From Asterionella formosa (Eukaryota), in NCBI GenBank assembly GCA_002256025.1, contig NKIB01015018.1, positions 1 through 38,755 on the forward strand: 38,755 nucleotides of DNA, in the 5' to 3' direction. Under the pieces are notes generated by a model. That model worked only from the letters and a program-made list of their open reading frames with translations. It made no database searches and had not been told where the DNA came from. The number at the start of each line of letters is the position of its first letter. Within the stretch, counting starts at the first letter, position 1. A program made the position numbers and the translations under genes. Positions 2,700-38,755 of the stretch are shown here, piece after piece.

Positions 2700-5255
2700 G
2701 GTATCTCGTATCCCCCCATTGACTTGTACCCCCCTTATACATCTTGCACAACACTCCCAAATATTTTATGTCTACAGAAAAAATAAGAGCATATTATTGT
2801 ATTTTACTCACACTATAATCATATTCTTACCGGTCACCATGAAACAACAATTAACAACAACACGAGCAACGCCAATGACATTTGCGATGGCGATATCCTT
2901 GGCCTGAGATCTATTTCAACAGTCAAAGCTGCAAGTTGCAAGCACATTGTGGCGCAATCATCAAGCTGAATGCTACAGGCTCATGCAGTGCTGGCCTCGA
3001 TGTTGTTGGGTTGACGGAAGCCTTAATAGAATCATTTTCGTCTGCTGACTGATGATGCAGTTATATTTCATGCATGGCATAATTCTGATCCAATAATCAT
3101 ATCAGCGATGCGGTTGGCTTATATTAATATCCATCACGATCGAACGTGTAGCACTTACACATATTAATACTATAGTAGGATTGAGTATAAGCCCGAGTCA
3201 CAAGGATTGTGGACTCGATTGTAATCGAACGAGTCGAATATTGCATTGCCACGTCAAGCAGCTGTCTAACGAGATCAAAGATTGAACATTTCTATACCGA
3301 GAAAACAGTGTGTAATTTGACAGGAAGGTCAATTAGTCTATCTAGCAGGAAGGCTAGAAGCAGAGACAAGAGAGAAAGTAAGTGGTACTAGGTAGTACCA
3401 TGATCACGTAAGAGTCTACGTGAAGAGAGACCCAGCCCGCGGGAAGGAGTACGGACCATTTCAACACGAATATACTGGTACCGGTATATGCATGAAAAAT
3501 AGTCACAGAAGAATGATTGTAACAAGCATCGAAAATTCGACACGGCCGATGTTGTTAAGCAACCAAAGTACTATGAAACGGAAATCGAAAGGTAAGGCGT
3601 GAAAATGACAAGCAGGGAGTAGAATAAAAGTGAAAAAGAAAATGCTGGGTCAGCAGAAAAATCGTGTGAAATTTTTTCAACGCATTTTCATTAACAATTG
3701 TCAACTCACACTTTTTTGTCGTTGCAACGACAAAAATTTCAGAAATGTTCAGATTGGGACTGGAGGAGCAGAAACCGATGCCTGAATTGATTTAGAGGCA
3801 GTGCTGGTTTCTGTATTGATTCGGACTTGTGGTTGCGGAGGTGTTGGAAGAGCAACAGCTTGATAGTGGAGGTTTGGTGCTGGCGATGCAGACTTCTGGT
3901 GTATCCAGCAGGAGGAGGAGCAGGATGTGTCGAAAATTTACTGGCTGATGTGGGCGTTTGTGGCTTGGAAAATTGAGGAGGACAGGTTTGACAAAGGTTG
4001 ATAGGGAGCAATGGAGTGATATGTTGTTGGTGCTGGCGAGATATGTTCTTGCCCACATAGTTTGCGACCTGAAGACTTTGGAATCTTCGTGCGAGTTTCG
4101 ATAAAAGTGGCTTGCTAGCATTGGGAAACAGGAAAAGAATAATGGTAGTGTGTGTTCATCATTATACCTCGTGAAAACTCTTACTCTATCCTGTTCAACC
4201 CTTGTAACATTTTTAGCCACCTCACAAACCTAATTCCAACTTTGCATTCCTTCCACAGAACAAATAGTATTTGGTGTAACAGAAAGGCTACACTAGCTAC
4301 TGACAGGATTGCTTCCTTCCTCCTACCTCTTTGACCCGCATTCTGCATCATTTCTGTTGGTTCATCAAATTGTTAATTGTTGAAAACTTCTTCAAACAGC
4401 ATTTGAGGAATTTCTGGACTCTCAATCATCATTCTGCATACTTGTCACTCCTGCTAAAGTAATATTAATTTTGTACTGCCATAGTAGGGGGTCGATGATT
4501 CATCGTCCCTGTCTTGACCATGACGAACTGATCGGACTCAATATCTCCACGAAGATTGACAATGAATCATTCCTATTTCGCACATATATCAACCCTAACA
4601 AAGCCGAGATAACATTCAAAAATATATCATTTTTCATCAATATTGACACAAAAAACTGAAATCGCCTCTAGCAGTTGTTTTCGTGGACGTTTGCTCAATT
4701 TTAAAGATAAAACCAAAGTGAAGACATCATTGAATCCGTAGTAGCTCACTTGATAACTTATGATAGATAATTATTTCTATATACTGTACAAATTAATGAG
4801 GAACATTGAGGAAATGAAATCTCGGAGAGGGTGCTGAAGCTCAAAATGCAAGAAAATACCTCAATCTGTATTTTTTGTACTGACTTTCATGTATCTACTT
4901 CGTGTCGTGGTTCGCATTCCTTTGGAATCTTGATTAGTTCATTTCGAATTTATGTATAGACATACATTTAGACATGGAACAATACACTGCTTGATCTTTA
5001 GGCGACTACAAATTTCGATACTAAAATGTAAACACTAATTCCCCTGACTGTTGGTTTGTGCATTTTCGGACACTTTTGTGCAAAATTTAATTCTTTTGGA
5101 CTGGAATGAGGTTTTTGATAATGTGAATCAACATGCAACCACGCTAATCAAGGTGGCTGTTGACAGGGGAACATGGCACGATGCAATTCAGTCCTCCATA
5201 CAATCAGTGAATGATATTAGTAGCCTTGATAACTATTCTAATTGGATAACACTAT

Positions 5256-5560
5256 GGGCAAATGACTTATTGGTCAGCACCCTTCTGTGGTGATGGGTTT
5301 GATTCCTGCATTCTCCAACTGTCTTTTCCATGCAGTTCCGAGGGTTCTGGGAGGTGTAGTTGACAAAACGACAGGTCCTGTTCTAATGTACAGATAAATA
5401 TAACTGGTACTAATTGTTTCCATTCAAATATCTCATGGGCATGAGGAAGATTATTGGATAACTTTAACACACTATAAGATTCAATTTTAAATGTTATTTG
5501 GATAACACCCCTACAGTTCTGGCATTGTCGATTGGCACTAAATCCAATTTTTTGAGAGGG
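5256..5560 (+). mobile_element. tRNA-derived SINE-like repeat, copy A
   Basis: A-box-like TGACTTATTGG (5263-5273) and B-box-like GGTTTGATTCC (5296-5306). The body aligns with 8069-8360 (gattcctgcatt.tcca.ctgtcttt; aactggtactaattgtttcc; attattgga). 3' end approximate. Confidence 0.55.
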
Positions 5561-6124
5561 CTCCAGAACCAAAGATATTTAAGCCCAGGATCTTTCCACA
5601 AAACCCCAATGCAGACAAGGATGCATTCAAAGGTTTGGCGTGCAGCAGCTCAAGGATATTTCAGCTGATTGAAGACATGAATAGTATGTTCAAGAAATGC
5701 TGGTGCCACAAATGATCGTAAACAAATAGGGTCTATTTTGACCTAGAACTCCTTCTTGCTCATCATTCAATTCAAGTACAACCAAGAATTTGGATGTTAG
5801 CTAGTCTAAAAGTTCGAAGGCATCAAGATGAGCCTGTTGTTATGTTTATAGGTCAAGAGGAAACTACCCAATGTACCAGGATTACCAGGCAATAGTTTCA
5901 GCCATACAAATAATTGGTGTCAATAAGCAAAGATCCGAATTGGGAAAACGTAGCTGTACCCGGTGTATGGATTCGGCTCGCGTGGTCTATTTTTTTGCTT
6001 GATATAATCAGGCGGAAACAACAGTCGTGATTCCAAACAAATACGGTTACCTGGTACCATCAGGTAGACTACCGGTACATGGTACCGGTATTACGGGTCG
6101 TACCTTTCGTGGCAGATGTCACGA

Positions 6125-6202
6125 TGACGTACGTAGTAAATGTTGACGTGTCGTTCATACAGTGTGCATCAATATATAAATATATTTATGTATGTATATA
6201 AA
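6125..6202 (+). promoter_or_regulatory. Putative promoter of LrgAB copy 1: two TGACGT boxes plus TATA-like motifs
   Basis: TGACGT at 6125-6130 and 6144-6149; TATATAAA at 6173-6180 and 6195-6202, 80-155 nt upstream of ATG 6280. TGACGT is the known diatom bZIP-type CO2/cAMP-responsive and aureochrome motif; function here is inferred. Confidence 0.45.
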
Positions 6203-6279
6203 TATGGCTATAAGGAAAAAGGCAAATGATTATTTCTTGTTCACAGTTTCAAAACGGTTGGCGTTTCAAAGTTATTGCA

Positions 6280-7991
6280 ATGATGATGTTGAAGCGCTTC
6301 GTCCAATTGCTCGCTCTGACGGCTGTATCTACCCACGCCACGACTTCGCGTTCACAATCATTTGCCCCTCGCAGCCTTATTACCGAGACAAAAAGTTCTA
6401 GAGATGTAACACAAACGCGTGGAGGCGCTTTCTCTGATACTGACAAGAAGGCTATTGCTGGGGCTGCTGGCTTCATCGTTATAGACTCTGTAATTCGTAA
6501 GCTATTCAAGAGCAATGGGATAAAGTTTCCATCTCAACTTGCTGGATGTATCATGTTGCTATCAACCATGTTGATCAGTGACGTGATAAAGCCCGGTGTG
6601 GGTGATTTCATCTTCAACGCCCTGACACCGGGTGCAGCTTTCTTGGGAAAATGGTGCGTATCTTAGACCTAGTTTGTTCGCACCCACCAGTGCCGATTGT
6701 TCGTGTGAGTGTATAGAGTGCGCTAACACATTGAAATAATTCCGTGATCAAAATATTCAGGCTTTCAGTCATGTATGTACCTGGTTTGGCTATGCTCCCA
6801 TTTGCTCCTTCGGTAGGATCGGGTGTTGATGTAAGTTTGTTGATGCTCTGCCTATTCATTCTATCCAATATGATGACCGATATGATGAATGGAAACTGTT
6901 ATGTTGTTCCAAAATGGATAAACCAATGCTCACAATTGATCATTTCCACCTACCTGCTAATGTCATAGGTAGCCAAAGTTGTCGCGGTCGCCCTCTTGGG
7001 CTTTCTATTCACCTTGTCGTCGGTCGCCTTTTCTGTACTCTTTCTTCGCAAAGCAGCTGGCACTGCTATTAATGCCCCCTCCATTGCAAAGCTGACAACT
7101 ACGAAATCCGCTGTCCCGGCTGTCAAGCCATTCAAAGAGGAGACACTTCAAATGCTCTTGACAGCCAGTGTCGTCACAGGTGCCATTTCGATTGCTGCCA
7201 GCCGCCTTGGCAATGAGTATGCCACACCCTTGAATACTTTGTTCATGGGATTCTCCCCTGTAGCTGCCTACGTTTGGGGATACTGCTCTTTGCCAGCTGC
7301 CTTCACCAAGATAGTACACCCACTTATCATTGGCACTTTCTTGACTTTGGGCGTGACACAACTCTCGGGATGGGCAACTGGTACCACCTTCTTGGATATG
7401 CTAAAAACATACAAGGTAGGCTCCCTCGATATCACAAAGGCTGGAGCCGGCGATTTTTTGCTCCACATGTTGAGTCCAACTGTTATTAGTTTTGCCGTCT
7501 CAATGTATTCTCGCAAGAAACTATTGAAAGAGAATCTTTTCGTTGTCTTGATCGCGGTGCTGGTTTCTAGTGTCGGGGGTCTTTTCGGAACAGCGGCCTT
7601 TGTCAGGGCCATTCAGCTAGGTGGCAGGAATGGTACTTTGATCCGTCTATCTGTCATATCTCGCAATGTCACAACAGCCTTGGCTATGGCCATCACATCC
7701 ATTTTGGGTGGAGACATTTCGATTGCTACCTCTGTCGTTATCTCGACAGGTATCACTGGGGCCACTTATGGGCGCTCAATTTTGACGGCCATGGGAATTC
7801 ATGATCCTGTGAGCCGTGGATTGGCAATTGGGGCCTCCTCACAAGGACTTGGTGTGGCCAGTGTGATTAGCGAGCCAGATGCCTTTCCCTTTGCTGCCAT
7901 GTCCATGGTGTTGACAGCTGTGTCTGCTACAACATTAGTGTCAATCCCAGCTGTCAAGGACGCTCTTGTTAAATTGGCTACAGGTGTCTAA
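6280..7991 (+). CDS. LrgA-LrgB fusion membrane transporter, PLGG1-like (glycolate/glycerate translocator homologue), copy 1; join(6280..6653,6761..6830,6969..7991), 488 aa
   Basis: Intron 1 is 6654-6760 (GTGCGT...GCTAAC...TTCAG) and intron 2 is 6831-6968 (GTAAGT...GCTAAT...CATAG); splicing gives an open 1467-nt frame. PLGG1/LrgAB motifs: IKFPSQLAGC, KWLSVMYVPGL, VHPL, GAGD, SFAVSMY, SRNVTTALA, DPVSRGLAIGASSQGLG. Signal peptide plus Ser/Thr/Arg-rich transit-like region. Confidence 0.93.
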
Positions 7992-8068
7992 GAATAGCTA
8001 ATAATCCGTAATGCGAGGCATGGGTTCCAACAATGTCTCTGGTCTAGCTATGTATGAATCATGGATAA

Positions 8069-8360
8069 GGGGAATGGCTTAGTGTTTAGCACACCTTAGG
8101 AGGTGCAAGTTAGATTCCTGCATTTTCCACCTGTCTTTCTTTTCTGCAGTCCCTAGGGTTCCAGGGCCTGTGGCTGACAAAGGTCCCATTGTACCATATG
8201 GATGAATAGAACTGGTACTAATTGTTTCCGTTTCATGTGGGCATAAGTGCAATTATTGGAAAGCTTGAACATATTATATGATTTAATTAACATTTTTGTA
8301 TTAATCATGGATTGTTGAGCCACTGTCATGATGTTGTAACAAGTCTTGAGGGAGTTGGCC
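8069..8360 (+). mobile_element. tRNA-derived SINE-like repeat, copy B
   Basis: A-box-like TGGCTTAGTGT (8075-8085) and B-box-like AGTTAGATTCC (8108-8118); body homologous to copy A at 5256. Confidence 0.55.
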
Positions 8361-9054
8361 AATGAACTAGGAATGATTTCCTACAAATAGAGCTTGACAG
8401 GCAGCAAATGAATTATAATTGATGAGTCATTCATAAATGGCATTGTAATAATGTAGTCATTGTAGGTTAATTACTTAATCATGAAGGGGAGCTATCCAAG
8501 AATTTCTAGATCCATTATTGCAGACAACCTACAAGCAAACACTACAAGCCGCATGGCAAAGGAGCATATTTTCTGACACCACAGAATTTGCACTGCCATC
8601 CTTCAGCTCACACATATGCAGGGGCTGGTTGTATTTAGATAAAAAGCACTCCTCATAATAAAGTATGATTTAAATTTTATCATACCTTTTCTGGTACATC
8701 CACAGACTTTATTGCAACAGTTGAGATATTCTCTGGATTTGTGCACTATCCTGCTGATCAATTCCCCTTTGCTGCATATGTTACCAATTTATCAATTAGT
8801 ACTGACTCAAGTATATCATACTGTTAATAAGCATTCTTAGCTAGTTTGACTGTTTCATAGCTAGGTGATGAGTGAGCAAGACGACATGAGAGAGGAAGAA
8901 CCACACAATGCAATTTATCTGCCCTTGGCTATTTCATGATACAAACCGGATATCAACTGTTTAGTATGGCAAGTAAGAAAAGAATTGTTTTGGAGTCTCT
9001 CAATTTGAGTGGCATTTGATTAAGGACATGGAGTTGAAGGTAATGTTTCATCAA

Positions 9055-9134
9055 ATACAAAATAAATTTTAATGATGGGCAATATCGGACCTTTGGCAAG
9101 AATTTTCGAGGTGAGGATTGGAAATATACGAAAT
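9055..9134 (+). repeat. Dispersed ~80-bp repeat (second copy 38679-38755)
   Basis: atacaaaata.attttaat.atgggcaatatcggacctttggca..attttcgaggtga.gat.ggaaatatac occurs at both loci in direct orientation. Confidence 0.85.
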
Positions 9135-9199
9135 ATACTTTGTATGATGGGCAATAGTAAGCTGAAATTGACATTTATGCTTTATTTGTGGCCAGTAGG

Positions 9200-10084
9200 T
9201 AATCAAATGACACGACGATAGCTAGAGCAGGAATTGCCTCAATAATACCTTCTCGGTGGCTACTTGCCTTCTCGAATACATGTGTACTCGCAGGCAAGAG
9301 ACCACCTCGGGCGTGTGTTGCCTTCAGCAATTTTTCTCATGTATTCCAGCTTCGAGAATTTTTGGATCTGTAGGCGATTGCATTTCAGCCGGGTTTTCCA
9401 TTACTGGAAGGCGTAGGCATGGGAGCGTAGTACCTTTGACCAAGCGTGCTTTCCTTGTGGTTTCCGCACTGCATTTTCTCCCAAGGCCATGGCTCTGCCA
9501 ATGTCGATGTCTATTTTTTCCCATGCTGCCGACATTCTTTCCTTCGGCCAAGAACAGTGACTTTCAAGGAATTCGATGCGTTTGTACACATTGTATTGTC
9601 TCCAGTATGTTTTCACTGCATGAAGATATTTAGTGCTGTCCTTAGGATTTGTGGAAATGAAATTGCGATGTTTGGAGATTGCCATGTCCTCTTGTTTTCC
9701 TCCGAAAAGTAAGTTTGCGTCCAGATCTAAGTAGAGGACTTGGTGATCTGCTATAATGCCATGATAGAATGGTAGGATACCCCCTTTCTTTGTAGAAAAC
9801 TGGATATGTTGGCTTCCCAAAATGTAATCAATGGTTTTGGAGCCCCGATCATATGTGACTGGTTCCTCCTCTTCAGGATGTAATCCTTTAAGAAGATTAG
9901 AGAGGCCGCATTCGCTGAGAATGGCTTCAGTCCCTTGAGATGATTGGCCAAGTTCCTCGTTTGCGTCCATCATGAGGAGGATCTCATATCCTTTTAAATG
10001 GCTATCCTGAACAAACTTAATGATGTCAAGAATATACTGGCGAAAAGGATTTGGATTGATGCAGCCCTGGGTGGACATGATCAT
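9200..10084 (-). mobile_element. Non-LTR retrotransposon fragment (Ambal-like), APE endonuclease C-terminal part
   Basis: ORF 10084-9401: EILLMMDANE...PVTYDRGSKTIDYILGS...IADHQVLYLD, matching the APE DxN, TY..IDY and SDH motifs. Collinear with the + strand element at 17250-17900. Left boundary approximate. Confidence 0.85.
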
Positions 10085-12064
10085 GTGTTCCTGTATTAAC
10101 CAGCAATGATGTCTTCCTCATTGAGTCCCAGATGTTCTTGGTGACAGGTAGTACCATTTGTTTCATGTTCCATGAGCTTGTTGGAAACTTGCAATTGATA
10201 TTCAGTGACAAAGGGAGAACAAATGGAAAGAAACACGACAAATGATAACAAGACTGAACAAAGCAAAGCACTGAAGGTAATCTTTGACCATCAGCATAAA
10301 TCCAATGCCCATGTCTGAACATGAAGAGGCAATTTGTCAGAATTGCCAAAAGCTTGCCAAGGTGAATACTGTCTACAAGTTTCAACCAAAAAACAAGGAG
10401 AAGAGAAAGATATCTACAGGTTTCAACAAAAAGTACAAGAAGGATTTGATCCATTTGAAAGTAATTTAAAATGATAGAATTGATAAGAGAGTCTTGGAAT
10501 TGAGACCATTGATTTTCGTGTCGACAAGAGAATGCCTTGCATCAATCAAGGATAGAAGGGTGATGTTATGGAGAATGGGTCCTCCTTTATTGTTTGCTGA
10601 AACAGGAACATGTAGCTCACCATATTTGATGTACCACTATAATTTCTGTTTGTAAACATGTTTGGAGGAAGGAAAAAATAAAGGCAATTAAATCTTGAAT
10701 GCATTGCATTTTGGTCTCCACTATTGGCCATACATACTTTGATATACTTGTTGCGAAATACACAAAGGTGGACAAAAGCAATGTAGGTACGTGTTCTCAA
10801 CCACATATGATTCATAATGGTGCTATATAATTGAACTTACCAATCGTTTCCACTTACTAATGTATGTTATGAATGATGTTCTAGCATTAATTATCTTCCT
10901 TAGTAGTTTTGAGGTTCATCAAACTTTGTCATGGTTCATTCCTCCTTCTCAGACTTAATGTCCAGTGCATTTTGCTTTGTAATTTCAAGATGTTTGCTGG
11001 TGCTTGCCTTGACAACCAATGTTAAATCGCTCAAAACTAAATTGGAATGAGTGCCCTCGAGGAACCATCAACTCATTCTATAAGTCCAAATGTTATTGTG
11101 AACCAGCAGTGAACAAGCAATCTACAAGATCACAGTAGCTAAGGAACAAGTATAAGAGAAGGTTAGTGATGGCCATTGTAATGGCCATTGTGAAGGCAAA
11201 AAAGCATTTTTGAGCGATAAATATTTAAAAGATGATCAGTCAAGGCCTGCTTATCCCTATCCAATGGATATCTGTCTAATCTTTGCACTTGGATTTATTT
11301 ATGTCAATTAAATATAGCTGTTGAAAATATTAATTATTTCAAGGCCATCACCAAGACAAGAGATTTGACACTTTTGTAAACAGGTTTTGAGGAGCCATAA
11401 TGATGAGCTTCTCGAGCTTTGGATGGCTTCTCTGCAGTAGTAGATAAAATTGTGGTTCTAAATAATGATAACAATCAGCATTATAAATGCTGCCATCCCC
11501 AGTTGAGATTGCAGACATTTCTGGTGTTGCTCCTTTGCAAGGAAGAAAATCATTTATCCATGGGAATTCTAGAGTACCGGTAATAGTTCAGAGGAATAGT
11601 TTATGATTTTATGCAGTTACAATGTGCAAATGAATTATTGCTGTTCCATTTTTAATGTAACCACAGTACATGACCGTATACTCCCTCACAAAATGTACTG
11701 GTACCACCTAAAAACTGGGAGTATACAAACTTTCACTTTTGTACTGATAGTCATAACAAAAAGGAGTAATCACACGGTTTGAGACAAATATTTGTAATAT
11801 TATAGATCTGTATTAGACAAAGTTATTCCTGTGCATATAAGGAACAGCATTGCTCATACTTGAACACTGCAATCTCGTACCAGTTCTTTAGTTATAATAG
11901 CCCAAAATTGGCTGTCGACGCTTGGTCCAAATCAGTTTTACCCCATTGAGCCTGCATGACTTTTTCAACACATAGGAGAAGCTGAAGCTATGTAAATAAT
12001 TAGCTTGTTTCAAGACTTTTCCGCATCATTTCTACTATGGCATGTTTGCGCCATTGTAATTAAG

Positions 12065-14100
12065 TGTCAAGATTTAGTACTGTATGCATATTAGTTCAGT
12101 CGAATTAATCAATCTTGAATAGTATTCCAGCCAAAATCCCGTATTGAAATGCTGTGAGAATTTGAACAGCATCGATTGCCAAGAACTATATCAGCAAACC
12201 AAGGTAAATATTCTAATGGAGAATGTTCTAAGTAATCAATATTTCAATGAAGTAAAGGTATATATGCAATGCAGATAGCATTGAATATTCACGATTGTTG
12301 TACGAAGTGAGTGGAGTTGAGTTGTCAGTTGAGAATTGAATGCCTAACAACGCAATGAATATCTATATACAAATTTGGGAAGAGAGCCTTAACAATTGAT
12401 CATGAAAACGATTACAAGATAGATCAAATAAGCTCACAATAAGGTGGGATTAGAACAGAAGGTTAAGTACATTGAGCTTGTCTAGAAAGAGCTAGAATTG
12501 CAGTCAGACTGCAGAAGAATTTAACATGCTTGCTAGCAGATCAACTTCGTTTTACAACATGACTGAAGACAAAGGTGAGACCATTTACCTTGTGAAGTTT
12601 GATGGCGAGGACGCCAATTGGCATGAGTGGAGTGTGAAGACAATGGCACTACTAGCCAAGGCAAGAGGATTCAAGAATGCCTACATGAAGGATACCAATC
12701 CATGCAGCGACGCTGTCTACAAAACTACAGACAAAGACGATGTCAAGAAGATCTACGAGATGAATGATCGCGCATACCAGCTCCTAGTTATAAGTTGCAC
12801 TGGGATCGCGTTCGGTTTGGTTAACCAAGCCAAGACAAAGAATCATCAAGACGGCGATGCATTCCTTGCTTGGACCTACCTCAAGGCTCGCTATGTTCCT
12901 AATGCTACAAGTGACCTAATCCCACGGTCAGGACAGTTCAACAAGTGCATCTGTGAGGGGAAGACGCAAGACCCAGACGAATGGTTCATTCAACTCGAGT
13001 TGTTGAGGAATCGAATGGCGACGATTGATTCTGCCTACGAAAAGAAGGATCTCGAGATGACTGCCCACATACTTGACAAACTACCTAAGGAGTACTCAGA
13101 AGTGGTAACCATGGTTGAGGCTATGCCCTCCCTGACACTAGAAGACCTTAAGGCCAAGACACGCGCGTTCTTCAAAAGCAAGTTTAAGAACGAAAAGTCG
13201 GATGGCGAACTTGCTCTTGTTGCCTTTGGAACTAAGTTCAAAGGACTCTGCCGCTCTTGTGGCAAGCAAGGACACAAGGCAGCCGATTGTTGAGTCCAGA
13301 ACAAGACGCACGGCGACGGAAACAGTCCTCCTCTGAAAGGCGTCAAGTGTTTCAATTTTTTGAATGCCAGATATATTGCAAAAGATTGCCCCAAACCCAA
13401 ACGAGAACGTACAACAACGAAACAAGAGACCGGCATGTTTGTTGGCATGTGTACGATTGACTACGAAGACATCGAAGCAAACGAAAAGAAAACAAGATAT
13501 GAATGACAAGTACAACGAGAACGACGATAAAGAGTGGACTTTCGTCGGTATTTGCGAGGAAATTATTGATGATTGTTATGTAAAAATTTATTATAAAGAG
13601 TTTTGTGCCTCTGCTGTTGCTTCTCGCTCTATTGCCCTACAGGAGAATTGGCTCGCTGATACTAGAGCTACTGCCCATATCACAATGAGTGACGTCGGTA
13701 TGACAAATGTACGCCCAGTCAGTGTCACAGTCGTCGTCGGCGATGGCTCGGAAATTAAATGCACAAAGCGCGGTGACATCATGTTCACCAACGGAGAAAA
13801 GACCATGACATTGAAGGATGTCCTGTAAACGCCTAAGTTTCACAAGAACATCGTCAGTTTGGGCGTCCTAATCCGTGACGGTTTTGACCTTTGAGTCACG
13901 GGTTGTACAATGATAGTTAAGAAAGGTCGCGGAGGACATATTTCATTTAACAGAGAGACCAATGGAGTTCTCTATTATTTTAAAGCAAGTCGCGCGAGTT
14001 ATGCCAATGTCGTATCCATGGTTATTGCCCCATTGTCCCAGGGGGCCGATAGTACCAAAAACTAGTCTAAAAACACCCATATGCTGTCAGTTCCTGAAAT
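12065..14100 (+). mobile_element. Ty1/Copia LTR retrotransposon, 3'-truncated (putative 5' LTR, gag, protease)
   Basis: Gag ORF 12526-13293 (KFDGEDANWHEWSVK...GDAFLAW...DPDEWF...ILDKLPKEYS, zinc knuckle CRSCGKQGHKAADC), a second decayed knuckle (..IAKDCP), protease WLADTRATAHIT, then LKDVL*TPKFHKNIVSLG...GVLY. Candidate LTR 12065-12394 (TGTCAAG...CTTAACA). No integrase, RT or 3' LTR seen. Confidence 0.88.
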
Positions 14101-14433
14101 TAAGATCCTTGTGTGATGGTTTCGACGCAATGTAGATTTCCCGGCACCACAAACAAGACAAGCCCTACTTACCCGCTTGGGAGAGACCTTACCACACCGA
14201 GGAGACCAGCAGGCGCTGGCAGAAGAGATCACAACTGCTGTGGTTCTTGCTGCGACTCCCATCCCCCCTTTTCTCCCCCCTTGGCCTGGTGCGGTTGACA
14301 ATGGTGCTGAACACAAGGGGAAAATTGATATTTCAGCTTGCTTCGGATATTACTGGCGGTGCTGGCTGGCAAGGAAGAATATGATGATGAAGGGTGGCTG
14401 AGAGGAGGAATATGAAGGAAGCGACGAAACAAG

Positions 14434-14504
14434 GAGGCGGAGGCAGAGGCGGAGGCGGAAGCGGAAGCAGAGTGAGGTGAGGTGAGGTGAGGTGAGGTGA
14501 GGTG
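14434..14504. repeat. Compound G-rich microsatellite (GAGGCR/GAAGCR)n + (GTGAG)6
   Basis: Hexamer array 14434-14469, then six GTGAG units at 14472-14501. Confidence 0.95.
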
Positions 14505-14852
14505 TAGGCGAAGGTGGAGAAGCAAACAAGCAATCAACACATTCTTGCTTGGCTGACATCTGTCATAGTAGTAATACCAAACCAGTAGCCTGATGTAAGC
14601 AGAACACTAATTAGTGACGAACGTAAATAATGCTTGAATAAATCTATATCAAACCATCATCAAAACGAATGAAAGTAAGATTATTGACACAAAAACTTGA
14701 AATAATATTTGAGACTTTTTGCCAAGTATAAAGGCGAGTTTAATAAGAACTTTTGTAGTACTAATATAGAAATCACAAAAATCCTAGTACTCACGCTATA
14801 CGTACATCCGGGTCCCGACGATCGACAGATTGACCAAACCACCCACTCCATC

Positions 14853-17800
14853 ATGGGGAAAACGAATGCAAAGGTGAGCCGCTTCAGCTCAGCCAACTGC
14901 AACAATCCAAACGAACGGTGATCAAACCAGACAGGAAAAAGGGGAAAACAAGGGATGAGGAACTGATGGAGAAACTTGAATTGGAGGAACAAAAGGCCAA
15001 TGCAGTGTTTGCGGCTTCAAATGATGAAATCGCAGTTGTAGACTTCATGGATACCATATCAAATGCCTTGGAGAAAACGGAAAGGTCCAAGTCAGTGTTT
15101 TCAGCCAGGAGGAAATCCTCTCAAGCCACCCTTCCATTCATCCCCACCATGAAAGCAGTCAGAGAGACGGAGGAAGAACTAGAACAGGATACAATCATTG
15201 CAGAAACGCTCACCATGGAAGAAGCCTTTGATACACCAAATGCTGAGTTTTCAGACAAGGATAAAATTATAGCAGAAGCTGAACAAACCACAGGCATACC
15301 ATTACTAGACATGGACAACATAGCAGTAGAAAACAACATACTTGCTGAGGATCAGAGAGATGCCAACACTCTGAAAGCTCAGCCAACCTCAAACGACTCA
15401 GCAACATGCAACCAATAAGATGCAGCTCAGTGACAGGCAGCATCAATCCGGCACCAAATGCTAGGTTGGAAGGCAAAGATCAGAGCAATCCTTCCGCCAA
15501 ATCATGATCTCCCTTCCCAAACCAAGCTCTTTATGAAGAAGCTTGATGAGACCCTAAAACAAATGACAAGTGTTGATCCTTTGATCCATCTCTTACCATT
15601 AGAAAACAACACAGATGATATTCCCGCTGGTAAGATTGTCAAACTTCTCTCAGGCAACCAAGCAGCATACATCAAAATCAAGGAAGTACCAAAAAAGAAA
15701 TACATGGATGCATTTCTACACTTCAAATCTCAATCCAATTATAGTAAAATCAAGCTCCAAATCCTACCATGATTCCTACAGGAAAAGAGAATCTACATCG
15801 ACGAATACAAATTGGAAAGACATCGACGAATACAAATTGGAAAGTTTGGATGACGTCCAAGTTGGTTGGCTATTTGGCAAAAGCAGTTTTGTGGTCTCAG
15901 AGAATGGCACCAAGAAGTGGCTAGTAGAGGATCTATTGGGATCAGATATTAGATCAAAGATGGATTTCCAAGTGCGCAGCCAAGGTACAAATTTGCGCAA
16001 TTTGGAATAGAACTCAAAACATTTGCTTTTGTAATAAGTGCCAGCAGAGAGACAGCAGAAGACATCTACCAAACCATGTAAACGTTTTACCAATAAGATC
16101 TGACTAATGCCTCTGCTTCGTAGGCTACCAAGCCTTCAACTTTTCTGCAGCTCAAGACCACAAAGAGGCAGCGCAAAACTACATGCAGCAGAAATGGTTG
16201 ACAACAAATATTCGCACAAAGCTAATGTCATGCTTCACAGATATTGACACACAGTTGAGGATCCAAGGTACCAACACTACTTTTAGACAATTTATGCTGG
16301 AGACAAAGATGACACTGGCAAATATCTAATGTGCGATGCTGATTTTACCGCATCAGGTCCCAATACATAAGAGAAGATGCCAAATGGAAACGCTCCAGGA
16401 AAGGACTTAAACAAGAGAAAAAGCTTGCACATCATGCAAAAAACCGAAGCAGTCCCTCCACGTCAGGTTCAGAAAAATCGACGTCAGAAAGTTCATCAGA
16501 CAACAGCTCCGCTTCTTCGTCCTCCTCATTGGGTTTATCGCTGCAGGAGGGCAGAAAAACTTCACCAGCATTCAAAAATCAAAAATCTTTGTTAAATCGA
16601 CTCTTGGTTGGCGAGATAGATTCAGACTCATCAGAAGAGAACATGCTGGACTCCAACAGCTCAAAAGATCCCAAAGTAAAAGAGAAAACTGCAAACCCAC
16701 CATTGGATTCAAAAAGGAAAGTGAACACAGGATCAAGCAACTCAACCCAACACAAAAAGAAAAAATGTCAGAGTTAGCTGTGGTACCTCAACTTAGCTAG
16801 TAGACCATCCATAGACTTAGCAGCCAGGAGAACCGGAAAAGATTTCCGAAATCGAGAAAGTGACCATCCAATGTACTCAGCCTCACGCCATACAAGGACA
16901 ACCATCAACAGGGTCCAAAGAGGCAGAAATTCGAAGGGAGTGGGAAATCCAACATAATATCAGAAAATGAGGCACATCAGAGGGGCACATACCCATCAAA
17001 CCAATACCACCATACACCAACAATACCTTCAAGCGCACACATCAAAGCAGACTAGAAATTCACATGAGAAAGCCTGATCCAACAGGAATGGGAAGATGGA
17101 GCTATCAGCTTTTGAAAAGAAAATGGAATAGTGATAACCATCATCACAGGCTCAGCCTATATGGTATCTCAAACATCAATGCCTCAACAGGGCGAGAGCA
17201 CCACATTTCACTGAGAATATATGATGATGTCCAAAGGGGTAGTTAAGATGCCCAATCCACGGAAACAGTTTGTTTCTGATCTCATTTCATTTATCCAAGA
17301 ACATCACATGAGAGGCAACGAAATCCTGCTAATACTAGATGCAAACGAAGAGGAGGGATCAGCACAAATGGGAATCACTGCAATACTTTGAGAATGCTCA
17401 TTGTCCAATTTACACAAGGATCTACACCCAGACCTTTCCAGCCCGGTGACATATGATAGAGGCTAAAAAAAGATTATATCTTGGGAAAGCGCTCACTGCC
17501 AAGCTGCATCCAAGAATCGAGGAGGAATCCTCCCATTTTACGCACAAATCCAGGCAGAACACAGGGCATTTTATATAGACTTTGATGCAAAGGCATTATT
17601 TGGCGGAATAAAAAAATTGAAACTGTAGATGCAAGATCATTCATGTCAACCAAGCCAGAAGAGTGCAAAAAATACCTTCATGCAGTGAAACAATACTGGA
17701 AAACCCACAAGATGCCGCCAAGGATTGATGCGCGCCACAAAATGACAGGACCAACAGCCGCCATACAAGCTGAATGGGGATAAAATCGACCGGGACATTG

Positions 17801-20800
17801 GCAGAGCCATGTCCCTTGGAGACAGGGCAGCAAAGAGACCAATGGGAACATATGTGTGGTCTAAAAAGCTCCGTCAAGCTGCATATGAATGCCAATACTG
17901 GCGAAAACAATTAAAAATGCATGCATACAATATAAATTCTAGCAAGAACCTAGAGGAAATACGCCAGATTGCGGGGTTAAAATCATTGGACACAGGAAAT
18001 CTAAGCTTAGTGGAATTAAAAGACAGGGTCAAAGGCAGATCGATGGCTCTTTGAACAATACAAAAACATTCAGAGCCAAGAATGGGAACAAGATTTACAA
18101 AATGTTCAAGGCAAAACATCCCAAATCGCACGAAAGGAAACAAAAAGACTGAAATCAATTCTTCAAGCAGAAAAATCAAAGGAGGGCTTTAAACGGCTAA
18201 AGCAAATATTCAATCCTCAACAAGGAGGTGCCCTATCAAAGGTACATGTCCCTGTTTATGACAGTGCTGGAGTTGCCACTTCATGGAAAACAGAATTTGA
18301 ATCAGATGCCCTTGAAACCGCCCTGCTGGAACATTGCTGAAGGCAATATAGAAAAGCCTCTAGTGCGCAGTTTGGCCATGGACCTTTGCGAGACTTACTG
18401 GGCTTTCACGGAATGACAGAGGCAGCAAACCAGATACTAGAGGGGACGTTGTTTCAAATCTTGATGAGGAATGTTTCCCAGGAGTCAGACAATTTATAGC
18501 AGCAATGGCGGTACCAGATGAGCTTAAAGGTAAAACAAAAATGAACACAGAAATCAATGAGGATGATTTCAGGAAGAGAATAAAAGAATAGAAAGAAACA
18601 AGATCTACATCACCAAGCAACCAACACCTCGGTCACTACAAAGTGCCAGGATTTAGAGCTCACTCAAGGTTATGCCAAAATGATTAACATGCCAGTAAAA
18701 AGAGGGTTCTCTCCATCACGATGGCAAAATGCAACCTCAGTAATGATAGAAAAAGACAAAGGAAATCCGAAGATCAACAGGCTTTGTATTATCCACCTCT
18801 TTGAAGCTGATTATAACCTTTTCCTCAAACTGATATGGGGATGCCACGCACATGGTGGGATTAGCAGAGGCACATGGAAGTCTGGGTGAAGAAATGCAGG
18901 GATCACGGAAACGCAGAAGCACCATGGATGTATTATTCAAGAAAACATTGAGCTTTGATTTGTGTAGACAACAAAGAACAAACATGGCTCTTTTCGACAC
19001 TGATGCTGCAAGCTTTTATGATAGAATCCTAGTTAGCTAACTTGGCCATGATCTGCGCAAGAAGGCTGGGAGCTCCATCAGAGGCGGGTTTTGCACAGCA
19101 CTCCGAGACACTTCGACTGATGAAATATACTGTCAAAACTGTCTACAGGACCTCGGCTGGGCATTATAGCAGCACTGCCACCGAGCCTTTAGCAGGCACA
19201 GGACAAGAAAGTGGAGCATCTCCAGCGGTTTGTCTGTCTATTTGTGCCGTACTTTTGTTGGCCTACAAAACACATGCACCAAAGGGAATGACATTCTCTG
19301 ACCCAACCGTGGCATTGGTTTATGGTCCCTCAACATTGGGGGAGCTGAATCTAGTTGGCATTAGAATCAAACAAGGAATCAAAAGACGAAAAATCGAAGT
19401 TGATGGATATCTCACTATGATTCACCCAGCTTGAGTCTGACAGGGACGAGGAATTACCGGGGAAGATTCCAATTAGCTATACCACATCAACATGGAAAAC
19501 TCAACTCAGGAACTTCATGGGAATGCACAATCTCTGCATCGAATGTACAAGAGGATGGCAACCCAGGACACAATGTGTACATGATCAGATGATCATGTCT
19601 CTCTTCCTCAACAAAGGCATATCAGATTATCTTTTTTTTCAACCTAGTGCTAACACGTGCAGGATGTATCTCCAAGTCACCTCACTAGCAGATACATTCG
19701 ACCAGAAATAGTGGAGTGCAATCAAATTGCACAACGAAGCTCACAGTGGACCTGGCCACAACAGCCAAAACGAACGCTCCAATAACAAGACAACTGGAAA
19801 GAAGCAATTACTTAACACCTAATCACTCAAGGATCCAAAAAACACCTAAGGCTCCGTCAACCATTAGGGAGGAGGTAGACAGGCACTCCTACTAGCCACT
19901 GGAAATATTATTATGATCAAACTACAAAAAGATCATGGAAACATCAGGAGATAGACGCAAAAGTATGGACAGTATAAGAAAATGAACCGGTATTGGGAGC
20001 TCCAAGATTTAACTTATCCAATGGCACTCCGTCAAATGTGGGGCCCCCAAAAGATCATTGCGTTCCCTGTGATGTTAGTCCTTGGGGATCAATTACCTTC
20101 AGATCCTGCGTCATGACATCAAAACCAGCTCAAGCAAGCAAACCGAGAACTTTTAGGGAACATGTTAAAGGGTTGGACTCCCACAAACAAAGGCTACTTC
20201 GAAATCTCACTTTGACAAATATGATGGAGGCTAGACTTTGCCGCCATCTTTTAGTACTTGGCTTACCATGAGCCATGCAAGATTGCGACTGATTTGGCTC
20301 AATGCAGCAGGACAAAAGAAGTTCCTTCGAGTGGACAATGAGGCTGAAACGCACAAACACACTGATCTCAGAAAAAAGCGCACAGTGCTCTGGTCCTGTT
20401 GATGGCAACCCTGTCCAAAACAGCTCCACTAGGGTTCTTCATCTCCTGGAGCAAGCACTGAGGACGACCCCCAGAAAATGCTGATATTGTTTCACTCCTA
20501 ACAGATATTTCCAAGGAACTATACATTGACATCAAGATACAGTGGATTAAAGCAGCCCATCAAGACAATGCTGCTAGAACACAGCGTTTGACTTCAATAG
20601 CATTGATGAATGTTCAAGCAGACAGCTTAGCTTCCCAATATCTGCAAGGACAACCAACCACAGCCACAGGAGGTCCAAGAAGGGCATCGAGACACTTCCC
20701 CACTATGTATGCAAGCTTACTAATCGAAGACAGGAGAATACACAGTTTCACCAGCGCACAGATCCGCTCCACATTAAAGGTTATCATTACAAAACTTATT

Positions 20801-22040
20801 TCAGGAAGAAACACAAGATAGACCATATGGCAGAATCATACATTGACTGGCACAGTCTGAAATCAGCCATCAAAAAACAAACAACAGGGATGAAAACAAT
20901 GATAACAATGATAACAAAGTAGATACATCATGGCTGGTTCCCCACAGGTTCCCAAAGGAAACTTATTCAGCACAATGGGGAGGACTCCTGCCCACAATGC
21001 AAGTGCCAAGAAACCAATGAACACATCATCACATCAGAAGTCCCAAAGCACGGTATAATACGGGAATCAGGCTGTCAGAAATGGCAAATTCTATCCAGAA
21101 AACACAAACAGGCACAAAAGTGACACCAGTAAAGTTAGATAATATCAGACATTTGATGTCAAACAATGAAAAGCCTTTCATACCCCACTTTGTACCTCGT
21201 ACTTCGGAAAAAACAAAACAGATCATCTATCAATCACTTAAACATGATCAGGGCGCATTGGGCAAAGAACTCACTCTTCGGGGGTATTGGTAAAGCGTTG
21301 GAACAAGGCAGAAAAGAGTTCCGACATCGACGACAACATGGCACCAGGAAAATTACATGAATTGTGGGTACCTTCAGCTATTACACATCTATGGAGGGTT
21401 GTCCACAGATCATGGACAGACAGAAACGAAATTCTCCATCGCAACGTCAACCTCAACATAGCACAATCTGATCTCAATCAGCAAATTACACAATACTACC
21501 AGCATAAAGAAAAAATATGCAGACGGGATTCCCATCTCTTCTCAATCGCACTACTACAGGATCTGCTTGACTCTCGACTGAACCGAAAAATTAGGTTTCT
21601 GGAAAGAGCAAAATTCATATTTCATGCATCCAAACAGCAGCCACAAAAGGGACAGGAATCCATATACACGTTTTTCTCAAGCAATACAGTACAAGAGACA
21701 AGAACTTGACACCAACAATCCGTCATAATTCTCGTGTGTGGCCTACAAGAATCTACAAACAATCCACACTAAAAATCCAATTCCCAAGCTGACATGCACC
21801 ACTCAGGTACATGGAAAGGACCCAAGATCGCAGCTACCAAACGTTTTTTTACCAATACTTCTACTCGAGGGAGTGACCACCAACACATCTTCCACCGCCC
21901 CACCTCACTATGGGCCATGGAGCGCAATAACGCCAAATCTAGAAATAGGCTAGAATAACGGAGCTATAAAAATGATTGATATAGCTACATGAAATAATAT
22001 TTGATTTAAAAGGCAAACACATTATTATTTAAGGTTAAAA
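14853..22040 (+). mobile_element. Decayed near-full-length non-LTR retrotransposon (Ambal-like: ORF1; ORF2 APE-RT-RNase H-Cys/His finger)
   Basis: ORF1 pieces 14853-16370 (VDPLIHLLP, VQVGWLFGKS). APE (DPTGMGRWS, EILLILDANE, PVTYDRG). RT (SPSRWQNATSVMIEKDKGNPKINRLCIIHLFEADYNL; DAASFYDRI; GTGQESGASPA). RNase H-like (CSGPVDGNPVQNSSTR; QWIKAAHQD...NVQADSLA). CPQCKCQETNEHI at ~20990. Many stops and frameshifts; ends approximate. Confidence 0.88.
15795..15844 (+). repeat. Perfect 25-bp tandem duplication
   Basis: acatcgacgaatacaaattggaaag x2, which frameshifts ORF1 of the non-LTR element. Confidence 0.95.
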
Positions 22041-22715
22041 AAATGAAAACAATTAATAATAAATGGGTAGATGATGCAACGGACAAATAATATTGTGGCA
22101 GGAAAAAGCTTTAGAGTGAACAACAGGGTAATTGAAACCAGAATTTGAATATAGACTTGTCTTCAGGTACGTAGTAAAAAATATGTATTGATAGTCATAC
22201 AAAACAACCATAATCATCAACTTTGAAAACTTCATATCTCTTGAATTATGAAGCGTCATTACTAATTAAACAGACCTATTGAAAGCGGAGAACCTGTTCT
22301 ACATTTAGCTACGTACTTGATTTGTTGTCACCATGAAATTTGACTAAAATAGTTTGAGTCGAAACATGGGGTAAACTTTACATGACTCTCAGATTTTAGG
22401 TGGTACTTACTTCCGTATGTACACTGGTGAGACATGCATCATCATACAAAGGTACCAGGTACCAGCTCCAATGTATACCGGTTCCTGTGTGATATGCTCA
22501 TGAAGTGATGCCCGATTTCGACATCAATCATTACATCCAAGCTGATTCTGGATTCCGTTTCTCCATATACAATTCATATCTAGAATTTGTCGTATGTAGC
22601 TGCCTGGTACAAACGGAACACACCGACTTTCAGTGTGCGGTAAAATGATTGTCCAAATCATCACTGCACATCAAAATGATAGGCATCATGTCAACGTATC
22701 ATTGATGTCACTACC

Positions 22716-24427
22716 ATGATGATGTTGAAGCGCTTCGTCCAATTGCTCGCTCTGACGGCTGTATCTACCCACGCCACGACTTCGCGTTCACAATCATTTG
22801 CCCCTCGCAGCCTTATTACCGAGACAAAAAGTGCTAGAGATGTAACACAAACGCGTGGAGGCGCTTTCTCTGATACTGACAAGAAGGCTATTGCTGGGGC
22901 TGCTGGCTTCATCGTTATAGACTCTGTAATTCGTAAGCTATTCAAGAGCAATGGGATAAAGTTTCCATCTCAACTTGCTGGATGTATCATGTTGCTATCA
23001 ACCATGTTGATCAGTGACGTGATAAAGCCCGGTGTGGGTGATTTCATCTTCAACGCCCTGACACCGGGTGCAGCTTTCTTGGGAAAATGGTGCGTATCTT
23101 AGACCTAGTTTGTTCGCACCCACCAGTGCAGATTGTTCGTGTGAGTGTATAGAGTGCGCTAACCCATTGAAATAATTCCGTGATCAAAATATTCAGGCTT
23201 TCAGTCATGTTTGTCCCTGGTTTGGCTATGCTCCCATTTGCTCCTTCGGTAGGATCGGGTGTTGATGTAAGTTTGTTGATGTTCTGCCTATTCATTCTAT
23301 CCAATATGATGACCGATATGATGAATGGAAACTGTTATGTTGTTCCAAAATGGATAAACCAATGCTCACAATTGATCATTTCCACCTACCTGCTAATGTC
23401 ATAGGTAGCCAAAGTTGTCGCGGTCGCCCTCTTGGGCTTTCTATTCACCTTGTCGTCGGTCGCCTTTTCTGTACTCTTTCTTCGCAAAGCAGCTGGCACT
23501 GCTATTAATGCCCCCTCCATTGCAAAGCTGACAACTACGAAATCCGCTGTCCCGGCTGTCAAGCCATTCAAAGAGGAGACACTGCAAATGCTCTTGACAG
23601 CCAGTGTCGTCACAGGTGCCATTTCGATTGCTGCCCGCCGCCTTGGCAATGAGTATGCCACACCCTTGAATACTTTGTTCATGGGATTCTCCACTGTAGC
23701 TGCCTACGTTTGGGGAGCCTGCTCTTTGCCAGCTGCCTTCACCAAGATAGTACACCCACTTATCATTGGCACTTTCTTGACTTTGGGCGTGACACAACTC
23801 TCGGGATGGGCAACTGGTACCACCTTCTTGGATATGCTAAAAACATACAAGGTAGGGTCCCTCGATATCACAAAGGCTGGAGCCGGCGATATCTTGCTCC
23901 ACATGTTGGGTCCAGCTGTCATTAGTTTTGCCGTCTCAATGTATTCTCGCAAGAAACTATTGAAAGAGAATCTTTTCGTTGTCTTGATCGCGGTGCTGGT
24001 TTCTAGTGTCGGGGGTCTTTTCGGAACAGCGGCCTTTGTTAGGGCCATTCAGCTAGGTGGCAGGAATGGCGCCTTGGTCCGTCTATCTGTCCTATCTCGC
24101 AATGTCACAACAGCCTTGGCTATGGCCATCACATCCATTTTGGGTGGAGACATTTCGATTGCTACCTCTGTCGTTATCATGACAGGTGTCACTGGGGCCA
24201 CTTATGGGCGCTCAATTTTGACGGCCATGGGAATTCATGATCCTGTGAGCCGTGGATTGGCAATTGGGGCCTCCTCACAAGGACTTGGTGTGGCCAGTGT
24301 GATTAGCGAGCCAGATGCCTTTCCCTTTGCTGCCATGTCCATGGTGTTGACGGCTATGTCTGCTACAACATTAGTGTCAATCCCAGCTGTCAAGGACGCT
24401 CTTGTTAAATTGGCTACAGGTGTCTAA
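22716..24427 (+). CDS. LrgA-LrgB fusion membrane transporter, PLGG1-like, copy 2; join(22716..23089,23197..23266,23405..24427), 488 aa
   Basis: Same exon/intron structure as copy 1 at a constant offset of 16436 with no indels. ACCATG start context. Retains GAGDILLHMLGPAVISFAVSMY (LrgB LGP motif). Confidence 0.94.
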
Positions 24428-24590
24428 GAATAGCTAATAATCCGTAATGCGAGACATAGTTTACTGTTCACGCCTGTTATCTATTTATTTATGCATCATG
24501 CTTATTCATTGAGCCCTTTTGTGAAAGTTGGAGCACAAGTTGATTCGTTTACCACATGTGAGAAAAATTCTAGAAGAGAATACAGCTTAA

Positions 24591-25060
24591 GGTATATAAA
24601 AATAGTTGCAATTTAAAACATATGACTCAGGGTGTCTATTCAAGCACTTCTCATAATGATTCTTCTTTGTTCATTTTTGAATTCTTTATTTTGACTATTT
24701 ATTTTGGTTGGATGATGTTCATGATATTAATTCTCTGGATCACACTATTGTGCAATAATAATGAATCTTTGGCTCAATATGTTTTGTTGAATCTACTTTG
24801 CAAGGGTGCAGTGAATTGTACTGTTTCAGTTCCAAGTCTTGAACACTTTGATCAAGAACACCTTGAGTTCTAGATATCCGAAGTGCATTTGTAAAAGAGG
24901 CACTTGTACCTTCATTGAATAATGCAGCATTCTTTTGGACAAGCGTAAGATTTCAACATTTTCTTGCTTTTGAGAAAAGATTTTTGAAATAAGTTGCATT
25001 CTATTTGGTCCAAAGGATATGCTCTCCATGATAAGTTTCATGTATTATCAGTAGTGCAAA
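24591..25060 (-). mobile_element. C-terminal relic of a Kolobok/Mutator-like transposase ending at a TTAA-flanked terminus
   Basis: Minus-strand decayed frame ETYHGEHILWTK...VQKNAALFNEG with a basic tail ...HPESY, resembling the NE..W..K...A..FN.G tail of this family. Ends ...ATATACC|TTAA (TTAA at 24587-24590). Confidence 0.4.
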
Positions 25061-25189
25061 TGAATTGATGGTACAGCTGCTACTAGATCTGACATGGGAT
25101 GTTATGGATTTTTAATGTATTCTGACCTGCAGAATCTACAGCTGCCTACAGTCAAGAATAAATATATTAAAAGAAAGAAAAATGCAACA

Positions 25190-25660
25190 ATCAACCATGA
25201 GCGAAATTACACATCACCCTGATAACAAGGAGGGTGACCCATTCAACTACAGTCATGATACTTGTCCAACACCATGATGTCAAGACCAATTGATTGTAGA
25301 GTTGGATGTGGAGGGATGTGACAATCGCATCTTCTGCAAATGCTGTGATTTTGGTTGCCTTGAATGTCAGTGATGATGGGATGAAGTCGAAGAGTTGGTG
25401 GAAAAGCTCTTAGAAGGTGAATCCATTATCAGCAGATTAAGGATGAAGACATTATGGCCTCCTCAAGAGCCCGCCACCGTCTCTACACGTTTTTAATCAG
25501 AGTTTACTGTGGACCTTTAGGAAAAGGTGTTCGGATGGAAATTTTTGTTTGTTGTTTGAAGGGTGGTCAATCCCTATTGAAAAACACTGTTAGTTGAAGG
25601 GGGTTCAATCCCTATTGAAAAACATGGACCCAAAGGAAGAGTTTCAAACCTGTTTTTAAA
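25190..25660 (+). pseudogene. P2X7 C-terminal-like (KolX-type) small Cys-rich protein relic
   Basis: FCKCCDFGCLEC...SSRARHRLYTFLIRVYCGPLGKGVRMEIFVCCLKG[VQSLLKNMDPKEEFQTCF] matches the R..Y..F.....G.LG.G.R..P.C...IR...Y.GF pattern of P2RX7_C-like domains. Disrupted by stops and by a duplication (25556-25586 / 25594-25624). Confidence 0.6.
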
Positions 25661-38678: not shown

Positions 38679-38755
38679 ATACAAAATATATTTTAATTAT
38701 GGGCAATATCGGACCTTTGGCAATTTTCGAGGTGAAGATAGGAAATATACAAAAT
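38679..38755 (+). repeat. Dispersed repeat, copy of 9055-9134 (runs off the right edge)
   Basis: Same sequence as 9055-9134 in direct orientation. Confidence 0.85.

Follow-up and report, generated by a model that had tools for sequence, protein, structure and literature searches.

The stretch of DNA analysed here (the window) covers all 38,755 nucleotides (nt) of contig NKIB01015018.1 in the Asterionella formosa assembly GCA_002256025.1, and has a G+C content of 40.8%. The window carries two copies of a gene of the LrgB/PLGG1 family, which share one orientation. The distance between them is 14.7 kb, or about 4 kb if a 10.7-kb element nested between them is left out. When the window was compared with itself by blastn, a single long internal repeat was found, positions 6280-8021 against positions 22716-24457 (1742 nt, 98.335% identity, gap-free), and a base-by-base comparison of copy 1 with copy 2 counted 29 mismatches and no insertions or deletions (indels) over the 1742 nt (98.3%). 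Outside this block, on either side, only 8-16 of 50 positions are identical without gaps in each 50-nt interval. The left edge of the block is exactly the first ATG. At the right edge of copy 1, the stop codon lies at 7989-7991, the identical run continues to 8017, position 8018 is a mismatch, and 8019-8021 match again, which places the end of the block 26-30 nt beyond the TAA. These edges agree with an earlier reading of the sequence (the original prediction), which had put them at the ATG and about 26 nt after the TAA, at 8017 and 24453.

In copy 1, the block (6280-8021, plus strand) consists of the coding sequence at 6280-7991 and the first 30 nt of the 3' untranslated region (UTR), with exons at 6280-6653, 6761-6830 and 6969-7991 and introns at 6654-6760 and 6831-6968. 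In copy 2, the block (22716-24457, plus strand) consists of the coding sequence at 22716-24427 and 30 nt past the stop codon, with exons at 22716-23089, 23197-23266 and 23405-24427 and introns at 23090-23196 and 23267-23404. Of the possible GT..AG models, this three-exon one alone combines an open frame with sensible splice sites, and the 488-codon frame is intact in both copies. An environmental protein of 498 amino acids (P0001) is a spliced product that crosses both modelled exon junctions exactly; because this independent protein reads across both junctions, it confirms the spliced gene model. Fragments from related species stop at the same intron 1 position. Both introns (107 and 138 nt, 245 nt together) are retained in the two copies and differ at only 3 of the 245 positions (6694, 6728 and 6846, about 1.2%), as the original prediction had also held. 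The other mismatches comprise one in the 30 nt past the stop codon and 25 within 21 codons. The two proteins differ at 14 amino acids, with a nonsynonymous divergence (dN) of 0.0149 and a synonymous divergence (dS) of 0.0242 by the Nei-Gojobori (NG86) method.

The Pfam domain LrgB (PF04172) matched exon 3 with an E-value of 1e-31 (110.5 bits against a cut-off of 25), and matched P0001 at residues 255-484 (112.2 bits). A protein search with exon 3 returned 416 proteins at E <=0.001 among 7999 scored candidates. Relatives are 51-81% identical to exon 3, and the closest matches are environmental sequences with 96-98% identity. The named relatives are pennate diatoms, Cylindrotheca closterium (P0035, 60% identical, labelled at its source as 'Plastidal glycolate/glycerate translocator') and Mayamaea pseudoterrestris (55% identical). 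By its Pfam domain the gene belongs to the LrgB/PLGG1 family, while its substrate and its location are putative. In plant PLGG1, an LrgA-like membrane part is fused N-terminally to LrgB, and the plant protein PLGG1 (AtLrgB) is reportedly the plastidic glycolate/glycerate translocator. The product of the Asterionella gene resembles PLGG1/AtLrgB in its LrgB domain, its length of about 490 amino acids and the presence of an N-terminal presequence. It differs in that no LrgA-type Pfam match was found in its N-terminal part (there was none in exon 1, and P0001 matched only LrgB at E-values up to 1), and in that glycolate/glycerate transport and plastid location are only putative here. Hydrophobic stretches are visible in the protein by eye, and the N-terminus has a signal-peptide-like start followed by 'SQSFAP', which we take, also by eye, to resemble the diatom ASAFAP-type motif. 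A narrow literature search on PLGG1 in diatoms and on paralogue conversion in diatoms found no report of duplicated diatom PLGG1 genes. In an excerpt of one published study, the Phaeodactylum PLGG1 homologues carry mitochondrial localisation predictions (PMC9546453).

Junctions of the two loci in independent contigs

Part of the region 5000-9500 is contained in 20 of the 24 sequencing runs listed, which are mostly labelled freshwater or lake metagenomes, and the source is accordingly a diatom of fresh water. We placed Logan contigs of four runs from four studies (X1, X5 and X6 from DNA; X13 from RNA) on positions 7900-25400. The 3' junction of copy 2 was bridged in X1, X5 and X6 by contigs that begin at 24424, 34 nt inside the block, and cover another 700-900 nt of flank; the one from X5 has zero differences. 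The 3' junction of copy 1 was bridged by an X1 contig at 7988-9084 and by an X13 RNA contig collinear with 6969-8226. The 5' junction of copy 1 was found in an independent metagenome contig (L001), which includes 18 nt of the flank, and in P0001, which reads through from the 5' UTR. At the 5' edge of copy 2, X1 and X13 contigs end exactly at 22716, and a 2133-nt contig of X6 extends 726 nt past 22716 into sequence unlike that upstream of copy 2. Such contig ends and branching are as expected for two upstream contexts joining one shared sequence. Among the contigs listed, none spans the whole stretch 7900-25400.

These junctions bear on whether one gene, or two alleles of it, could have been placed twice in the contig by assembly or polishing, an artefact that the original prediction had named as a sign against it. 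The 29 single-base differences without indels do resemble allelic variation, and the 5' junction of copy 2 is the exception among the four junctions, the other three being present in independent contigs. The flanks of the two copies are unrelated sequences on one contig and not haplotigs, both 3' junctions were bridged in independent runs, and the X6 contig leaves the copy 2 context at 22716. The word depth in X1 was 199 and 189 for the gene-body contigs against 95-136 in five single-copy flank contigs; this roughly doubled depth is a hint only, because depth is not copy number. Taken together, the results make an assembly artefact very unlikely.

Diverged homology beside the block and clustered differences

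The original prediction had detected no similarity between the promoters or the distal 3' flanks of the two copies. This holds for the 5' flanks, which have no significant collinear similarity, but the 3' flanks keep an old homology at low identity that is interrupted in copy 1 by an insertion. The first stretch of this homology in copy 1 (8022-8066, plus strand) has low identity to 24458-24503, and the homology resumes beyond the insertion (8313-8520, plus strand); the copy 2 flank (24458-24750, plus strand) is collinear with that of copy 1 at low identity. The insertion (S2; 8067-8296, plus strand, 230 nt, repeat family D11) resembles a short interspersed nuclear element (SINE). It is bracketed by 16-nt target-site duplications at 8051-8066 and 8297-8312 that are identical at 15 of 16 positions, and it is 70.7% identical over 229 nt to an older relative (S1; 5261-5486, plus strand) that lies upstream of copy 1 in the same orientation. 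Its head (8069-8129) is weakly tRNA-like (Rfam tRNA, 21.1 bits, E-value 0.63, below the gathering score of 29), and a tRNA scan found no tRNA genes. The limits of S2 were set without copy 2, from the target duplication and from the relative at 5261-5486, and the copy 2 flank represents the paralogous empty site.

The first 150 nt of the unedited 3' flanks gave a banded alignment score of 18.5, against 8.7 +/- 2.1 for shuffled sequences (0 of 200 reached it) and with P of 0.01 against genomic controls. Once S2 was taken out together with one of the two 16-nt target-site repeats, the score rose to 36, against 14.2 +/- 3.7 for shuffles (0 of 200) and 11.2 +/- 3.3 for genomic control pairs from the window (maximum 27; 0 of 500 reached it). 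The part beyond S2 alone scored 25 against 13.3 +/- 3.7 for shuffles (P 0.015). The best local alignment pairs 8024-8520, without S2, with 24466-24750; it has 72 gap columns and identical letters in 181 of the 232 ungapped ones. The resulting Jukes-Cantor (JC) distance of 0.26 is an underestimate because the scoring is gap-tolerant. The homologous DNA next to the block is thus at least 10-fold more diverged than the block and rich in indels. Homology extending into the flanks had been named beforehand as a sign that would speak against the original prediction; it was found on the 3' side, at an identity so much lower that it favours gene conversion. Because this homology continues beyond the block, the duplication appears to be old and larger than the block, which would have been overwritten later.

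Two further observations concern S2 itself. The RNA contig of X13 runs from exon 3 into S2 (to 8226), and S2 seems to be part of the 3' UTR of copy 1. The contig depth in the S2 bin suggests more near-identical copies in the genome.

The differences between the two blocks are clustered. Eleven of the 28 gaps between neighbouring differences are 8 nt or shorter against 3.5 expected, a number that none of 20000 permutations reached, and 7 differences fall in the 5' half of the block against 22 in the 3' half (binomial P 0.008). The 5' half holds the presequence and both introns, which are expected to be least constrained.

The environmental sequences provide a further comparison. The L001 contig (1608 nt) opens with 18 nt of copy 1 flank, an exact match to 6262-6279, and includes both introns; 35 of 1608 compared positions set it apart from copy 1, and 27 of 1590 from copy 2. 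When L001 and the two copies were compared three ways, the 44 variable sites comprised 18 private to L001, 17 at which copy 1 is odd and 9 at which copy 2 is odd. These sites are arranged in blocks (18 runs, P 0.0002), including one run of nine sites with copy 1 odd (P 0.001), in a contig that is possibly chimeric. P0001 has a 5' UTR of the copy 1 type, yet it is 2 amino acids from copy 2 and 14 from copy 1. In conspecific environmental proteins, the variable residues are found in every combination; at positions 253 and 466, for instance, these are Y/V, A/M, Y/M and A/V. The environmental sequences are consistent with exchange between the loci and fall short of proof, because short-read assemblies can switch between loci that are 98% identical, as the X1 contigs do.

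Probable interlocus gene conversion and other possible origins of the block

We propose that the two genes are probably old paralogues whose gene bodies were later homogenised by interlocus gene conversion, an interpretation drawn from the sequence comparisons above. An old tandem duplication would have included at least about 250 nt of the 3' flank. The flanks and UTRs would then have diverged through substitutions, many small indels and insertions of mobile elements. One or more non-reciprocal transfers at the DNA level would have overwritten the gene body, beginning at the ATG, and about 30 nt that follow the stop codon, and the two small introns would have been carried along because they lie between conserved exons. 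The tract would end where alignable homology runs out, which we infer to be where the UTRs and flanks had lost their homology. The copies would have gained their 29 differences after the transfer. What points to conversion, rather than to another process of replacement, is a block of 98.3% identity without indels that directly adjoins homologous 3' flank with 181 of 232 identical columns and 72 gap columns, together with residual differences that are patchy in the permutation test, the half-split and the three-way runs. Old paralogues under gene conversion had been the first alternative of the original prediction, which gains support from the diverged flank beside the block and from the clustered differences; its further claims, that conversion is ongoing and is selectively confined to the gene body, do not gain such support.

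The sharp step in identity could have arisen in other ways. If old duplicates had been held alike by purifying selection alone, with no transfer between them, a conserved protein would be expected, and in exon 3 the relatives do share 51-81% identity. A divergence of 1-2% in introns and silent sites is not something that selection on the protein can maintain; purifying selection alone therefore fails to explain introns with 3 differences in 245 nt and a dS of 0.024 next to a 3' flank with a JC distance of at least 0.26 and 72 gap columns, and we find this origin scarcely credible. A retrocopy was rejected as well, as in the original prediction: both introns are present, no run of A follows 8021 or 24457, and transcripts of copy 1 pass both edges of the block. 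Since copy 1 transcripts run past both edges, the edges lie inside the UTRs and are not transcript ends, which together with the retained introns rules out an RNA-mediated origin. Capture by a Pack-MULE-type or Helitron-type element, or by an element with terminal inverted repeats (TIRs), was also considered and rejected, as only short imperfect inverted repeats occur around the copies and the window holds no third copy; the gene-body depth in X1, about twice that of the flanks and not higher, is again only a hint.

The most serious rival is a recent duplication or capture of no more than the gene itself, with its ATG at one end and some 30 nt after the stop codon at the other, which was placed beside foreign flanks by repair-associated copying or transposon pick-up without any conversion. 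It would explain the low and roughly uniform divergence without indels, and it would suit a transposon-rich setting (a copia gag fragment, a Mutator-like fragment, a TIR-bounded block and a SINE-like element). A fresh breakpoint at 8021 would not give the low-identity 3' homology that passes the end of the block, and on the same ground the second alternative of the original prediction, a precise capture of the gene body beside a new promoter, is disfavoured. The differences are clustered and not even. Neither block lies between convincing terminal repeats or target duplications; around copy 2, the strongest inverted pair (22572-22591 and 24562-24581) has 20 nt and 80% identity and is one of 16 such pairs in 3.8 kb. 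We therefore regard a recent capture as unlikely.

Several observations weigh against gene conversion between old paralogues, and three of them (the dN/dS ratio, the uneven load of derived residues and the 5' flanks) suit a recent capture. The dN/dS ratio between the copies is about 0.6, and most derived residues are on copy 1, while the private changes of copy 2 are fewer (R226, V410 and M466). Among 116 aligned relatives, the copy 1 residues of T245P and A253Y occur in 0 of 116, that of G317S in 1 of 116 and that of L378I in 2 of 116. Such a pattern of replacements also fits a young redundant duplicate. In the 5' flanks, banded tests for collinear similarity gave P values of 0.07-0.10, and because this homology is not significant, the old duplication is documented on one side only. 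None of the contigs listed bridges the 5' junction of copy 2. As to the environmental sequences, three sequences fit any unrooted tree, so that it is the spatial clustering of the sites that shows mosaicism in L001; L001, the proteins P0001-P0006 and the Logan contigs are all short-read assemblies and possibly chimeric between the copies, and the X1 gene-body contigs match neither copy, with 5 and 12 other letters.

The replacements in copy 1 are themselves clustered, at residues 245, 253, 311-319 and 371-378 (7257-7656), which are nearly invariant in the 116 relatives. Judged by these residues, copy 1 may be functionally altered or decaying, though its frame and splice sites are intact. If the gene bodies were homogenised as proposed, copy 1 would seem to have come under relaxed or altered constraint after it was last homogenised.

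Gene conversion between duplicated loci is a known kind of event, and the present case is a tidy example of an ordinary mechanism. Primate gamma-globin and hsp70 genes are classical pairs. As in such concerted evolution of tandem duplicates, a sharp-edged, near-identical block of exons and introns lies here in more diverged homologous DNA, with patchy differences. Unlike the classical cases, old homology is found here on one flank only, and the 5' edge falls at the start codon, a coincidence for which the proposal gives no reason. For another comparison, the silicon-transporter genes SuSIT1 and SuSIT2 of Synedra ulna subsp. danica are, in an excerpt of the 2018 paper describing them, two structural genes with identical sequence, for which conversion was raised; the same excerpt states that gene conversion had not been found in diatom genomes to its authors' knowledge (PMC6114903). 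As far as that excerpt goes, the Asterionella genes resemble SuSIT1 and SuSIT2 as a near-twin gene pair in a freshwater pennate diatom. They differ in belonging to another gene family, and in that the SuSIT copies are identical, whereas the pair studied here has 98.3% identity together with a diverged homologous flank showing that the duplication is older than the identity.

Mobile DNA, control regions and implications

The DNA between and around the two genes is rich in mobile elements. A block of 10.7 kb (11701-22407) between the copies is bounded by 22-nt TIRs that match at 20 of 22 positions, and Pfam identified a copia-type gag/Pol_BBD fragment inside it (12496-13828). From 14.8 to 21.7 kb the block carries A-over-T-skewed, decayed plus-strand frames without Pfam match, in which reverse transcriptase-like and RNase H-like motifs can be seen by eye. 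In all four runs, short-sided joints connect 11694-11698 directly to 22413; the likeliest source of these joints is a multi-copy repeat that hosts the nested 10.7-kb block here and is uninterrupted in its other copies.

Among 29 frames of at least 100 amino acids outside the gene, Pfam returned weak transposon-type matches only (copia gag, Pol_BBD and Mutator), and 118 further frames of at least 65 amino acids in the window had no Pfam match; these searches gave no name to any host gene nearby. A frame at 26238-26684, 1.8 kb downstream of copy 2, resembles a Mutator-like transposase below threshold (23.4 bits against a cut-off of 26.5). The stretch 9355-10090, which follows copy 1 closely, has an inverted similarity of 59.8% over 751 nt to 17215-17940 and represents a relative of the decayed retroelement in opposite orientation. 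An 80-nt repeat at 9055-9134 recurs at 38679-38755 (90% identity); in each of the four runs, contig depth peaked far above all other bins at 9068-9651, which marks it as a very high-copy repeat. Other repeats in the window are a 189-nt unit in tandem duplication at 33344-33720 (96.3% identity) and a 190-nt direct repeat at 1582-1771 and 2504-2693 (89.5%, 922 nt apart).

Repetitive DNA also reaches the upstream region of copy 2. Its proximal upstream sequence (22413-22715) consists, from 22413 to about 22600 at least, of the multi-copy repeat (R), the other half of which is found at about 11550-11697; this reach of R was set from depth bins and from loose contig ends at 22443, 22570 and 22581. 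Upstream of copy 1 lies a copy-specific 5' UTR (6233-6279, plus strand) with a 17-nt tandem unit, in which the motif GTTTCAAA occurs at 6246 and 6263. P0001 reads 'SFKVIA' ahead of the start codon, which matches the copy 1 flank if one 17-nt unit is omitted. Compared with the window, P0001 appears one 17-nt unit short and differs at 3 of 10 read-through residues, and from sample to sample this flank is more variable than the coding sequence. For copy 2, the sequence 'SLIDDTMM' of a protein from a related species (P0123) was compared with the upstream read-through 'RIIDVTTMMM' and was set aside as too short to count.

Unbanded local alignments of 100, 300 and 1000 nt of the 5' flanks gave z-scores of 1.6-2.5, and the sequence upstream of copy 1 had no significant similarity to 10700-11700. 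A scanning alignment paired 5613-5925 with 22430-22713 at a score of 31.5, which 2 of 300 genomic controls reached (P 0.007); its halves lose significance when taken singly, and a multi-copy repeat takes up half of it. The match sits about 354 nt further upstream of the ATG in copy 1 than in copy 2. A tentative and rather doubtful extension of the conversion proposal would be that the tract is fenced by mobile DNA that rewired both control regions. Under this extension, copy 2 would have received its upstream repeat, and copy 1 a foreign block of 353 nt (5927-6279) at its ATG that supplies the 5' UTR and a TATA-like, AT-rich promoter region, while the ancestral upstream sequence would survive at 5613-5925. 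If this were true, two differently regulated promoters would drive one protein kept uniform by conversion, and the locus would be the first well-documented nuclear interlocus conversion in a diatom.

Non-allelic conversion is little documented for the nuclear genomes of diatoms, and the pair would offer a clean case of it that can be checked. Assemblies of this gene from short reads or metagenomes will mix the two loci into chimeras, and a date for the duplication taken from trees of this transporter will be too young. Both copies are presumably expressed, from different 5' UTRs, and copy-specific expression will be readable only from the UTRs. The finding suggests that A. formosa has two differently controlled copies of a putative transporter that likely functions in photorespiration.

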